From Octopus vulgaris (Eukaryota), in NCBI GenBank assembly GCA_951406725.2, contig OX597835.1, positions 13,144,001 through 13,208,000 of the forward strand: a DNA stretch of 64,000 nt, in the 5' to 3' direction. Under the pieces are notes generated by a model. The model was not told where the DNA came from. It saw only the letters and a list, made by a program, of their open reading frames with translations, and did not search any database. Shown one piece after another: positions 15,165 through 55,532 of this stretch (position 1 is its first letter; every line of letters begins with the position of its first letter). A program made the translations under genes and the position numbers.

Positions 15165-15330
15165 GTATATATAAAAATTAAAAATTTGTCTAATATAGCA
15201 GCATTTTCGAACTTCATTTTTTACAAATATATATATATATATATAGTTAATCCAAACAAGAAAACACAGCAACGCGAGGACGTGGAACAATTAAAGTATT
15301 ATTTGACGCTCAGGAAAGAAGGGAAGGAGG

Positions 15331-15365
15331 GTTTAACGTTTCGAGCGGAGCTCTTCGTCGGAAAC
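15331..15365 (-). ncRNA. Minimal type I hammerhead ribozyme motif
   Basis: Minus strand: GTTT-CCGACGA-A-GAGC(TCC)GCTC-GAAA-CGTT-AAAC; stem I GTTT/AAAC, palindromic ACGT stem III, GUU cleavage triplet. Confidence 0.7.
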
Positions 15366-15749
15366 AAAGGAGAAGGAAAGATCCCGAGAAGGGAAGACAG
15401 AGGAAAAAAATTTTTTTGCTGGTGGTGCTCAAGAGATCGCATGTTGAAATATATATACTAGCTGACATACCCGGTAATTCCCAGGAAAGTGGGGCTTATC
15501 CCTTGGTTCCATTCTCATAATTGTTTTGCTAATCCAATAACAACAATACTAGATATGTAGCCCTTAAAACAGTTTTTGTGCATTTACAGAGAATACTGAA
15601 CTGTCTTACACAGGATCTTGCTTTTAGGAATTCTCAATAAATTATGAATATCCAAATTGTGAAGTCAGTTATGTAATAACATGAAATTAGTTACCTGATA
15701 GTAAGAATTCAAGTAAAGTAGCCCCGAAAAGAGCTTTAATACGTTCCCA

Positions 15750-16200
15750 GAGTATGATTTTGCAGAGACGTTTGATGTGGTGGGTGGGATATTTGGTATG
15801 GATGAGTGATGAGCAACTGCCAAAGCAGCTATCATATGGTGAGCTGGAAGATGGCAGGAGACCAGTGCATAAACCTAAACTAAGGTTTAAGGATTGCCTT
15901 AAAAATGCTCTAATAAAGACAAGAATTGCAGCTGGTAATTGGGAGAGGGGGGCACAAGATCATGATGGATGGAGGAAGATAGTGCATGATGGTTGTTCAA
16001 GGTTTGAGAGGGAGAGAGTGAAGTATGAGAGAATTAGGAGGAGGGGGGGCTTAGAAGGGGGTGAACCTGTGGAAAGTGAGAGAGTGTTGCTTTTTATGTG
16101 CGTGGTTTGTGGGCGGAGGTGTTTGAGTCGTGCAGGCCTGGTGAGCCATCAAAATTCTCATAGAAATCGACCCCTGATAAACAATGATGTGGCTATTAAA
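15750..16200 (+). mobile_element. RTE-clade LINE 3' fragment (ORF C-terminus)
   Basis: RRLMWWVGYLVWMSDEQLPKQLSYGEL..GRR...KPKLRFKDCLK and CVVCGRRCLSRAGLVSHQNSH are typical RTE C-terminal motifs. Confidence 0.8.
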
Positions 16201-17214
16201 ATTCATAACAGAACGTGTCACCAGCATTAGGGGCACACATACACACACACACACAAACACACACACAAAAACACCTATATGATAGGCTTCTTTCAGTTTC
16301 CGTCTACCAAATCCACTCACAAGATTTTGATTGCCCTGATTGCTATAATAAAGTTACTTGCCCAAGGTGCTGTTCTGTGGGACTGAACTCATTGATCACA
16401 TTGCTGGAAGCAAGCAACATAACATAATATGTGTGTGCGTGTGTACAGGTGTTTGTGTGTTTGTGTGGGTGTGTGTCTCACCATTTAACAATCGGTGTTG
16501 ATTTGTTTACATTCATGGAACTTAGGAGCTCAGTTTTTTGGAAAAACACAATTGTTTACTGCCAGGATATTTCTCGTTAAGTTTTTACTAATTTTTCTCT
16601 TGATTTTTGTCCGGAATATTTTTACAATTTTCCTGCTTCAAAAACAGATTTATTTCAACAATTGTAGAATTATCAACAGTTTCATGATTTCAATGTCTGG
16701 AAACAAAAGACTATTATTTTGTTCCGATTCTAGTATCTCTGCTCTTTTGCTAACGTTTTTTTTTTTTTTTTTTGTTTTTTAAATCATTTGTTTGTTTTTT
16801 TTTTTTGGTATTTTTTTTTTTTGTTTTGTTTTCTTTGGCATTCAATATGGCTGTTGTGTGTTTTCAGACTTTTGTCTTGTTGTAAATCTCCTTATGACAT
16901 CTGGATTTCTTATTTCTACAATATTAGCTCGAGAATCATTTTCAGCTGGAAAGAAAACAATTTGATTCTCGAAGCTGCTGTTTACCAAACTTTGATTATT
17001 GAGCAGTTCAACAGTTGCGGAAGAAACCAGAGAGAAGCTAAACATTTGCCCCCCCCCCCCGCCTCCAATGTATATCCTTTGTAAAATGTATCCCAATGTC
17101 ACGCCACTCCCTCTGTCCTCTGGCTCCATCTCTATCTTATGCACTTTGTATATCTTTCCTTATAACTACATATATGTGTGTGCTTGTGTGTATAGCTTTT
17201 ATCTTTTACTTGTT

Positions 17215-27794: not shown

Positions 27795-28123
27795 TTTTAC
27801 TTGTTTCATTCATTAACTTGTGGCCATGCTGGGGCACAGCCCTGATGGGTTTAGTTGAACAAATTAATACCGGTACTTAAATTTTGTAAAGTCTGGTACT
27901 TATTGTATTGGTCTCATTTGCTGAACTACTAAGTTACTAGGATATTTTACTTGTTTCATTCATTAACTTGTGGCCATGCTGGGGCACAGCCCTGATGGGT
28001 TTAGTCGAACAAATTAATACCGGTACTTAAATTTTGTAAAGTCTGGTACTTATTGTATTGGTCTCATTTGCTGAACTACTAAGTTACTAGGATATTTTAC
28101 TTGTTTCATTCATTAACTTGTGG
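27795..28123. repeat. 150-bp tandem duplication (about 2.2 copies) of a decayed SINE A tail
   Basis: TTTTACTTGTTTCATTCATTAACTTGTGGC recurs at 27795, 27945 and 28095; units nearly identical. Confidence 0.92.
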
Positions 28124-29539
28124 CAACCCCACTGTTTCTCTTGTACTTAATTTATTGACCCCGAAAGGATGAAAAGCAAAGTCGACTTTGGTGAAATTTG
28201 AACTCAGAATGTAAAGAGGGACGAAATACCGCTAAGCATTTCGCCCGACATGCTAACGTTTCTGCCAGCTCACCACCTTCAAATGAAGAAACGATATTAA
28301 AGAGATGTAAATTATACATTAATTGAAATGAAAGGGGTGAAATGTGATGGGATAAGATGGAGGTTAGTAGTAGGTTAAAATAAAAGAAAGGAGAAAAAAT
28401 TAAAATAGGGGGAATGAGTTGAAGGAAGAATAGAATAAAGAAGATGAAAGAAATTGAGGTAATTTTTTGTAAATAGTCAGATATAATGGACCCTTAGTTC
28501 TGAACCTTTTCTCTCTCAAAGACCCCTTTTATTTAAACAAATTTTCTCACAGACCCCAGCTTTTTGAAAGGTCTATTTCCTGAATAAGCCAATGTTATTA
28601 AATGACAACACAATTGTTTTCTTTGTTTTGTCTCATAATTAAAAGATATATGTAATTGAATAATTATAAGTAATTGAGTAATTATATATTTTAAATTGCC
28701 ACCTTTTAGAATTTTGAACTCAGTTCACAGAAGAACCCCAAGCAGTGTCTTTGTGGGCCCCATTGGTTTGCAAAGCTTAGCTTTGGGAAATCGTTGATTC
28801 TGAAGGTCAAGAAAAATGTATATAGAAGTCATTAGATTTAGATAATTAATCAAAACAAGAGTTGGATAAGAAATTAGTCTTACTTGCTGTTTGAATTAAC
28901 TTAAATCAGAAAGAATAAAGACGTAAGGTGAAAAGCAGTGTTGTAAGAGGCTGATGGTTAGTAAGGAGAGACACACAAATAAGAAAGAAGAAAGCAAGAG
29001 ACCACTGATGCAGTCACAGGAGTGTGACGAAAGAACTCTGGCCGAAATAAGATTAAGATTAATGTAAAAAATAAATAACGCTGAAGCAAAGTAACATCGA
29101 ATATATATATAGTGTGTGTGTTTTTATTGGGTAAACTGGCAAAATGACCATTCCTAAATACAACAATATCTGTTTCAACACACGGTTTCACATCAAAAAT
29201 CTTGCAAAACAAATATATAAACGTAAGTGTTGTAAGAGGTTCAAAGACAAACATGAATGCTGCATTTCATTGGAATTTAATAGAAATGGTAATAAAAGAG
29301 GTTTCTGGTTGCAAAGTTACTCTAAGAAATGTCTATCTGAAATGGAACACGTTGCAACTCGTTAGCAATTATTTTAATGGGAGCTTTTTGTCCACCCCCA
29401 AAAAAATAGCATTTTCAGTTACATATTTGTTTATTGATTTCAAGGTGTCTCTTATACGTTTAGTGCCAATACCTTCTTGAGAATTCATCAGAGATTTTCT
29501 ATTATACCTATTTATATATAATAGAAAAATTTTAATTAA

Positions 29540-43188: not shown

Positions 43189-43229
43189 TATATATACTTT
43201 ATTTAAAAGCAGCAGAAATTCAACAAAAC

Positions 43230-43267
43230 CTGTTACTTGGAGTTTCACGTTCCCGTTCATCGGACAG
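43230..43267 (-). ncRNA. Minimal type I hammerhead ribozyme motif
   Basis: Minus strand: CTGT-CCGATGA-ACG(GGAA)CGT-GAA-ACT(CCA)AGT-A-ACAG; three stems, GNRA loop 2, GUA cleavage triplet. Confidence 0.72.
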
Positions 43268-43293
43268 TTTTTGTTAAAAAAAAATATAAAAAA

Positions 43294-50550: not shown

Positions 50551-50558
50551 TTTATTGT

Positions 50559-51140
50559 GTGCAAGAGAGACGATTGCGCTGGTATGGTCATGTGGTGAGA
50601 ATGGATGAAGATAGGTGTGTGAAAAAGTGCCACACCCTGGCAGTTGAGGGGACCTGTGGAAGAGGTAGACCCAGGAAAACCTGGGTCGAGGTGGTGAAGC
50701 ACGACCTTCGAACTCTAGGTCTCACCAAGGAAATGACCAGAGACCGAGACCTATGGAAGTATGCTGTGCGTGAGAAGACCCGGCAAGACCAGTGAGAACA
50801 ATCAAAATCAAATCATATATCAGAAAGCAGGGGTTAAGTGACCCATCTGTTCGTGTCCGCTGTCAGCCTCGTCTGGCACCCGTGCCGGTGATACGTAAAA
50901 GCACCATTCGCTCATGGCCGTTTGCCAGCTGTTCCTGGCCCCGTGTCGTCCGTGTCCGCTGCCAGCCTCGGCTGGCCCCCGTGCCGGTGACACTCTGTTC
51001 GCTTCCGTTGCGGTGGTACGTAAAAGCACCATCCGTTCGCATCCGTTGCCAGCCTCGGCTATGCCGGTGACACGAAAGCATCTGGCACGTAAAAGCACCA
51101 TCCGTTCGTGTCCGTTGCCAGCATCGCCGCCCGATGACAC
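50559..51140 (+). mobile_element. RTE LINE 3' end with repeat-module 3' UTR
   Basis: ERRLRWYGHVVRMDEDRCVKK...GRGRPRKTW...DRDLW* followed by GTGCCGGT...CGTAAAAGCACC modules. Confidence 0.85.
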
Positions 51141-51453
51141 TATGCCGTTAGCTCTGTCTGCACCTGCGGTGGCACTATCTATCTATCTATCTATCTATCC
51201 AGCTTACAGACCCCAGTTATATATATATATGGAATATATATAATTTTATATATATAATTTTAAATTTTAAATTCTATTGGATTTTATTCATAAGGTATTG
51301 GAATCTTATATGTATACCATTCTGCCTAAAAAAATAGATTTACAAATGCAATATCCTTACATATCTCACATCTATTTTCTTATATTTCCTCCACCTCACT
51401 CTCTATTTTATATCTTATCTAAATTAACTGTTTCTTAACCATCCTCTCACACC

Positions 51454-51501
51454 GTCTCCGATGAAGGGATATAACAAATATCCTCGAAACAGCTGTAAGA
51501 C
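51454..51501 (+). ncRNA. Minimal type I hammerhead ribozyme (Penelope-like)
   Basis: GTCT-CCGATGA-AGGGATAT(AACAA)ATATCCTC-GAA-ACAGCTGT-A-AGAC: stem I GTCT/AGAC, 7-bp stem II, palindromic stem III, GUA triplet (predicted cut after 51497). Confidence 0.8.
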
Positions 51502-54390: not shown

Positions 54391-54820
54391 ACAAGCAAAT
54401 CTGTGGTTATTGAGCTGAATATTTGCTATAACGATATTTCTGCTTCAGCAACTCGGCACTGAATCTGAAATGTAATGGAAAATAGGTCAGTTTCAAAACA
54501 TTGATGTCCAGGTCACAAAAGCAAAGTGTGAAGGGGATAGTAGTCATTTCCTTTGATTTCTAAATAGAAGCAAATAGGAAATAACACTTACTGACCAAAG
54601 ACAACAAGCAAATCTGTGCCATTGAGCAGAATATTTACCATAATGATATTTCTGCTTCAGCAACTCAGCGCTGAATCTGTCTGAAATGTAATGGAAAATA
54701 GGTCAGTTTCAAAACATTGATGTCCAGGTGACAAAAGCATAGTGTGAAGGGGATAGTAGTCATTTCCTTTGATTTCTAAAAAGAAGCAAACAGGAAAAAT
54801 AACACTTAATGATCAAAGGC
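54391..54820. repeat. ~213-bp tandem duplication (2 copies)
   Basis: ACAAGCAAATCTGTG...GAAATGTAATGGAAAATAGGTCAG...CCTTTGATTTCTAAA occurs at 54391 and 54604. Confidence 0.9.
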
Positions 54821-55532
54821 AAAAATAAATTTTAAATTTGTTACTCAGTGTTACGGAAGAACAAATTCTTCATCATCAAACACACCAATACTTCGCTGTC
54901 CCTCGAGTGTTGTTTCAAAGATATGGTTCTACATTTGGTAAGAATATTTCAAATTGCCTCTAAGCCTTTATAATCATTTAGATTAGTCCACATTCAGAAT
55001 TAATTGGGATTAATTAGGAAGCATTTTATTAATTCAAGTCTTGCAGCATTTTACCATTCTCGTTGTCATCCATGATCTTGGATGTCTTTGAGTCTTCAGC
55101 ATCATCTTTCAGTTAATAGCATCATACCATTATGTTTCATGTCTCACTTGTTTCATTTATTGGATTATGGCCATGCTGGGGCATTACCTTAAAGGGTTTT
55201 GTTTTATGAAACCAATCCTGGTACTAACCTTTTTTTATGTTTTGTTCTTATTCTATTGGTCTCTTTTGCTGGATTTCTAGGTTATGGGGACATAAACAAA
55301 CCATCACCAGTTGTCAAGTGGTGATAGGGGTCAAACGCAATGGCACATACATACATGATGGGCTTCCACACAGTTTCTCTCTGCTGGATTTTACTTACAA
55401 GGCATTAGTTGTCCCAGTGTTATCGTAGAAAACACTTGCCCAAGGTACCTTGCGGTGGGACTGAACTTGAAACCATGCGATTGCAAGGCCAAAGCACCAC
55501 CTCACTGTCACGCCATTTGTGAAGTAATTTAA

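Follow-up and report, generated by a model that had tools for sequence, protein, structure and literature searches.

The hammerhead motif at 51454-51501 of the window (the whole 64,000-nucleotide stretch of Octopus vulgaris contig OX597835.1 that was analysed) is the 3'-end hammerhead of a truncated copy of a Penelope-like element (PLE), and it belongs to a subfamily in which core position 4 is C rather than U (C4, the U4C change). The copy is likely inert where it now lies, and in the founding elements the variant was likely a low-activity ribozyme that was tolerated or favoured; we give this reading as a whole a probability of roughly 0.78. The motif is real and forms the end of a retroelement rather than standing as a lone ribozyme, and taken by itself the locus is an unremarkable repeat relic of a familiar kind. 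The hammerhead architecture is already known; what is new is the lineage-wide, recurrent U4C core.

Anatomy of the motif

All of the listed hammerhead elements can be read directly in the 48 bases of the forward strand, and the account of sequence, stems and core given in the initial annotation is confirmed from the letters and by a type I descriptor compared with shuffles. The 5' strand of stem I (51454-51457) pairs over 4 bp with its 3' strand (51498-51501), where family homology also ends. Core positions 3-9 occupy 51458-51464, with C replacing U at position 4 (51459). The next segment (51465-51485) comprises an unpaired A, stem II with its loop and an unpaired C, a layout on which the fold, the column counts and the published Hydra-clade arrangement agree. 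Stem II pairs 51466-51472 with 51478-51484 (7 bp, G.U as first pair, 5-nt loop) and is flanked by unpaired bases on both sides, A51465 at the 5' side and C51485 at the 3' side. The last segment (51486-51497), supported by the self-duplex and dimer folds, holds GAAA (51486-51489), the loop-less palindromic stem III (an 8-nt palindrome, 51489-51496) and the predicted cleavage site; H17 is A51497, in a GUA triplet, and the cut proposed earlier, after 51497, is consistent with hammerhead position numbering.

In its loose version, the descriptor gives three matches in the window versus 0.14 per shuffled window, and all three have C at core position 4. The strict version (stem II of at least 6 bp and a perfect 8-nt palindrome) gives no match in 100 shuffles. 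By contrast, an Rfam scan of the window returned no family up to the gathering score, which for RF00163 is 34 bits. Across the 2.8-Gb genome, RF00163 has only six matches among 73 scored candidates, none of them at 51454-51501 and all in other families. The best RF00163 match in the genome, at 45.5 bits and with a canonical core, lies near position 1500 of locus L001; loci L002, L003 and L006 have, near the same position, 108-nt matches with a long stem II insertion, and these make up a family of their own.

In minimal PLE hammerheads as described by Cervera and de la Pena (2014; PMC4209133), helix II is long and helix I short, A9 is followed by an unpaired base, and helix III is palindromic; the descriptor of that study (Fig. 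S7) fixes cuganga and leaves room for one additional base at either flank of stem II. The GAAA box, the A15.1-U16.1 pair (51496) and an NUH triplet (GUA) are all present in the window motif, and its helix I of 4 bp, helix II of 7 bp and unpaired A51465 lie within the published limits (4-5 bp; 7-8 bp; a base after A9). With C at position 4, the core departs from CUGANGA, and we class the motif as a variant and not as a consensus member. The G10.1-C11.1 pair is absent as well: in the best register this pair is G.U in the window copy and in S1 and S3, two of the four subfamilies introduced below, and G-C in S2 and S4. The base at 51485 is C in only 1 of 106 flank-anchored copies, the usual state being G in S1 (20/29) and S2 (23/29), A in S3 (22/24) and A or T in S4. 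The initial annotation had pointed to an extra or mismatched A at the base of stem II. A51465 is indeed unpaired but is not damage: because a short stem I, bases flanking stem II and a palindromic stem III make up the published PLE/Hydra architecture, the extra A is a hallmark of PLE hammerheads.

Predicted fold and covariation

When two copies of the motif are folded together, the predicted minimum free energy structure is a double hammerhead with an 8-bp intermolecular stem III, which fits the palindromic stem III and dimer model put forward earlier. The predicted energies are -26.3 kcal/mol for the dimer versus -6.3 kcal/mol for the monomer, and -11.1 kcal/mol for the 8-bp self-duplex of stem III. 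Monomer stability is ordinary (z -0.29); the energy gain on dimerisation is equalled by 8 of 200 shuffles, or by 14 of 200 when flanks are added. No dimer signal is seen for families B and C, the two other hammerhead families of the window, where 48/200 and 124/200 shuffles gain as much. Covariation across genomic copies, named in the initial annotation as a check, was run and gave no significant signal in the stem pairs: three pairs have two-sided, compensatory change, and 169 of 500 shuffles score as high in an alignment of 76 rows, left from 110 sampled copies after length variants and some others had been dropped. Such an absence is what invariant founders and decaying copies would give.

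A truncated Penelope-like copy

The motif forms the end of a 260-bp fragment at 51242-51501 (+), a truncated 3' piece (3' untranslated/pLTR region) of a dispersed Penelope-like retrotransposon. Blastn against family loci aligns the whole of this interval at up to 88-89% identity, and comparison with the subfamily majority, together with clade membership, assigns it to S1. Upstream of the motif the copy is identical to the S1 majority at 162 of 170 positions, a difference of about 5%, and within the 48-nt motif it has two differences. At its 5' end the copy is truncated beside a TA-rich, microsatellite-like tract (51217-51262, found by a tandem repeat finder), and at its 3' end it lacks the tail that other copies have after stem I. 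Sequence past 51501 had no match among the family loci then compared. The junction after 51501 is bridged by single-copy contigs of sequencing runs X19 and X20 that are about 94% identical to the window; these belong to contigs compared from four runs, data that carry no RNA ends, strand or level.

The statement that no PLE open reading frame lies nearby holds, since tblastn with family peptides detects no ORF remnant in the window. A second copy of the family was likewise not found in the 64 kb. Tandem arrays of short hammerhead-bearing units, by which non-LTR retrozymes are defined (10.64898/2026.07.22.740005), are absent, the motif being a single copy in the window. In the genome, a degenerate pattern of the motif has 129 exact matches versus 0 for the reversed control, which is an undercount, the pattern having left out the commonest base at 51485. 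Inverted partner copies are present at several family loci, as has been described for PLE insertions (Craig et al. 2021, PMC8557442).

The closest paralogues of the window copy were sampled through locus L028, which also matches window 50557-50797 at 88%. This interval and window 15691-16227 (+) hold remnants similar, in our judgement, to the terminal 3' portions of ORFs from non-LTR retrotransposons. The window further contains two two-copy tandem duplications, at 27795-28124 (150 bp, 99% matches) and 54391-54822 (216 bp, 90%).

Reverse transcriptase and endonuclease remnants

Longer family copies run into broken reverse transcriptase (RT) and endonuclease (EN) frames. In loci L212, L213 and L218, a C4 motif is preceded on its own strand by RT and EN remnants. 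The earlier identification of the motif as a type I minimal hammerhead from a PLE is right. The EN follows the RT, an order seen in L212. In L212 and L218, the region equivalent to the window fragment lies about 0.7-0.8 kb downstream of the EN remnants, and about 0.9-1.0 kb separate the end of the EN ORF from the motif, which excludes as ORF end a short frame immediately 5' of the motif. The RT and EN pieces align to a full-length protein, P0001 (2e-28 and 3e-10); against the GIY-YIG profile PF01541 the endonuclease scores only weakly, with an E value of 0.0027, below the cut-off. A protein search for longer relatives yielded one match among 1638 candidates. Among the protein matches listed (150 of 157), the longest open frame has 433 amino acids and no intact element is present.

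Several features of these remnants bear on clade. A CxCX5C linker, absence of CCHH, CxxC before the E and CxH after the N are found in L213, L215, L218 and partly in L212; in the ORFs of L213, L218 and L100, an expanded Asn-rich low-complexity linker precedes the CxCX5C motif. The RWK and DKT motifs of the Hydra-clade RT N-terminus have no in-frame match in the four remnants scanned and are present in the closest protein, P0001. (TA)n is found at the 5' boundary in the window and at many family loci, and is the preferred target of Hydra-clade PLEs (PMC8557442, section 11). Judged from sequence, the linker, the missing CCHH, the flanking CxxC and CxH and the (TA)n targets would fit the Hydra clade of that study and not Neptune, which is ruled out by the CxCX5C form of the linker (not CX2-5CxxC) and by the absence of CCHH in the GIY-YIG domain. 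Hydra-clade PLEs are described as generally shorter than 3 kb (PMC8557442); the distance from RT fragment to hammerhead exceeds 3.1 kb in L212, a copy with an expanded low-complexity linker.

C4 as a founding state of subfamilies S1 and S3

The initial annotation treated C4 as a variant of this copy. To place it within the family, four subfamilies were sampled with queries ending before the motif; the best 40 candidates were scored, 25-30 loci were kept and the seeds were excluded from the counts. In these flank-anchored samples, position 4 is C in 22 of 29 S1 and in all 24 S3 copies, and T in 27 of 29 S2 and 21 of 24 S4 copies. These counts rule out a private mutation of the window copy. The T4 copies in S1 do not point to a U4 founder, an option ruled out because G5A copies accompany them at the frequency seen for the adjacent CpG (4 TG and 2 CA at the core CpG versus 3 TG and 3 CA at its neighbour), so that they are products of decay. 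A midpoint-rooted tree of the upstream flank, with a bootstrap that was not fully converged, unites S1, S3 and the window copy in one clade (100/100) nested among S2 copies. C4 is thus the founding state of S1 and of S3, the youngest subfamily (median divergence 2.8%), and the more basal S2 and S4 are U4. In some S4-type copies (L133, L136 and L024), stem I has 6 bp instead of 4 bp.

The motif has changed far less than its surroundings. Between the S1 and S3 majorities, 42 of 43 motif columns are kept versus 151 of 181 upstream columns (Fisher p=0.013; 0.024 with both flanks), and the length of loop II differs. When the majorities of all four subfamilies are compared, variable columns number only 3 of 43 in the motif versus 19 of 54 downstream (p=0.001), and the other catalytic positions and the cleavage triplet are fixed. 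Taken together, the column counts and the change in loop II length suggest that the motif remained under selection after U4C, for whatever role. Core and all stems are fully intact in 3 of 29 S1 and 11 of 24 S3 copies, and in the window copy too.

C4 in other families

Two further C4-core minimal hammerheads were found in the window by the descriptor, both on the reverse strand and both in repeats that have no similarity to the Penelope-like S family outside the core. The family B motif (15331-15365) sits in a very young repeat of about 200 bp lying between (TA)n tracts (window 15245-15450). Several copies are identical over the 88-base flank query, and this near-identity suggests recent mobility. 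With a flank-only query, C4 is present in 19 of 20 other core-retaining copies, and 4 of 25 loci lack the core. Distant relatives of family B carry both U4 and C4 among diverged subfamilies, in 20 places hand-picked for variety. The family C motif (43230-43267) has stems I and III like published Hydra-clade motifs, resembling Hydra-2_aMil (PMC8557442, File S2), and the family spans window 43195-43290, with an extendable stem I and often as inverted pairs. C4 is present at 20 of 20 family C loci, but here the query included the core. Neither family showed a same-strand ORF link: the sole EN remnants, at L236 and L261, are on the other strand, and for family B the upstream query was mostly microsatellite.

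Genome-wide, a generic minimal-hammerhead pattern, which checks no stem pairing, has 24,821 matches versus 20 in the control. C4 accounts for 11,386 of these (9 in the control), about 46%, and U4 for the remaining 13,435; among 100 listed, the C4 matches are mostly family B. A descriptor that fixes U4, as the published PLE one does, would hence miss about 46% of the generic pattern matches in this genome. One U4 minimal hammerhead family, very abundant and with a longer stem II (G000:C1:585829-585864 and many others), accounts for more than a third of the first 100 matches to the pattern.

Interpretation of the C4 core

In the founding element, the motif would cut the element RNA after the GUA triplet only when two copies pair via the palindromic stem III, a mechanism taken from published PLE hammerheads and the predicted fold. 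The copy counts and the flank tree show that U4C was fixed in the founding lineage. That lineage continued to amplify, in two or more waves, and conserved the remainder of the motif. From this fixation and continued amplification we infer that the U4C motif was likely a tolerated or favoured low-activity ribozyme, cleaving weakly in the founders, which suggests that C4 elements likely kept a weakened self-cutting RNA.

The initial annotation proposed that the RNA at 51454-51501 may itself be active. A window copy that is transcribed, cleaves itself (in trans as a dimer, or as a monomer) and has a function at the locus could draw on the intactness of the core and all stems, a test passed by only 3 of 29 S1 copies, and on the fact that the copy ends exactly at stem I, with the same junction bridged in the X19 and X20 contigs. 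However, roughly one S1 copy in ten and close to half of the S3 copies pass it as well, and in published work minimal motifs did not cleave as single units and did so weakly as dimers (PMC4209133). We consider this very improbable, and the proposal is unsupported: the locus is a doubly truncated relic, no family partner lies in the window, and the activity reported with U4C is lower. The window copy is likely inert at its site, because it has no such partner and because its divergence, in motif and upstream alike, is what neutral decay predicts.

Even the founding C4 motif could have been catalytically dead, with cleavage no longer needed and the motif conserved for some other role, for instance as a structure at the 3' end to which the reverse transcriptase binds. 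As a natural viroid variant, U4C is reported to lower in vitro activity considerably (cited in Perreault et al. 2011, PMC3088659), and in a deep scan single changes in the CUGA turn gave low activity (PMC9901934). Naiads and most Chlamys are described as having spread without canonical hammerheads (PMC8557442), and the founding S1/S3 motif also has G.U, not G-C, as first stem II pair. We nevertheless find a dead motif doubtful, given the fixed catalytic positions and triplet and the low variation of motif versus downstream columns, and given that the viroid variant is reported to keep sufficient activity in vivo (PMC3088659).

A neutral hitch-hiking C4, tolerated by the ribozyme and spread according to which founders amplified, would agree with the thousands of copies reached by U4 families and with the presence of both states among relatives of family B, from which most of the listed C4 matches come. 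Against this stands the occurrence of C4 in three families without similarity outside the core, compared with U4 in all 56 motifs of PMC4209133 Fig. S3 and in all rows of PMC8557442 File S2, a biased contrast in that those searches required U4 at least in part. We hold neutrality to be a real possibility, though we lean away from it. Conversely, U4C as the majority state in three unrelated families, including the youngest high-copy ones, might reflect repeated independent selection for a detuned hammerhead, slower cleavage favouring retrotransposition, and more than 11,000 ribozymes would then be invisible to standard descriptors; we offer this only tentatively and would not expect it to be correct. 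The sister subfamilies differ at only two or three of 43 motif columns, U4 versus C4 among them, and so let cleavage rate be set against amplification history, in a group of endonuclease-bearing PLEs for which hammerhead function has been described as unclear (PMC8557442).

Comparison with known hammerheads

No report of C4 in PLE hammerheads was found by title or abstract in the literature searched; Lunse et al. 2017, the most relevant paper, lies outside that scope and may hold such variants. Among the same literature, only PMC3088659 combines "hammerhead", "viroid" and "U4C".

Among the closest known systems is the Hydra clade. In its listed hammerheads (PMC8557442, File S2), stem II has an extra base at either side and stem III is 4 bp long with a loop of 0-2 nt, and the window motif is similarly of type I, with an extra base on each side of stem II, a 4-bp stem III and a short stem I. 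The elements share the 3' position of the motif behind a C-terminal GIY-YIG ORF with a CxCX5C linker, and the (TA)n targets. Unlike the listed Hydra-clade motifs, all of which are U4, the youngest subfamilies here have C4 and a G.U first stem II pair, and the bases opposed at the foot of stem II are purine-purine in the founder and A.C in the window copy. The listed octopus family Hydra-1_Obim has other stems. The family also resembles the minimal PLE hammerheads of PMC4209133 in being dispersed as single copies from truncated PLEs, with low-activity dimer cleavage as the proposed mode; it differs in the loss of G10.1-C11.1 in S1 and S3 and in its core, the only core variant named in the parts of that paper drawn on being U3-A8. 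Rfam RF00163 (Hammerhead_1) has the same core layout, although the window motif scores below its gathering threshold. Finally, the viroid hammerhead of PMC3088659 has the same core substitution. There, U4C is a rare plant-viroid variant whose effect is suggested to be offset by tertiary contacts, whereas here it predominates in multi-copy retroelement subfamilies of an animal and is carried by a minimal motif.
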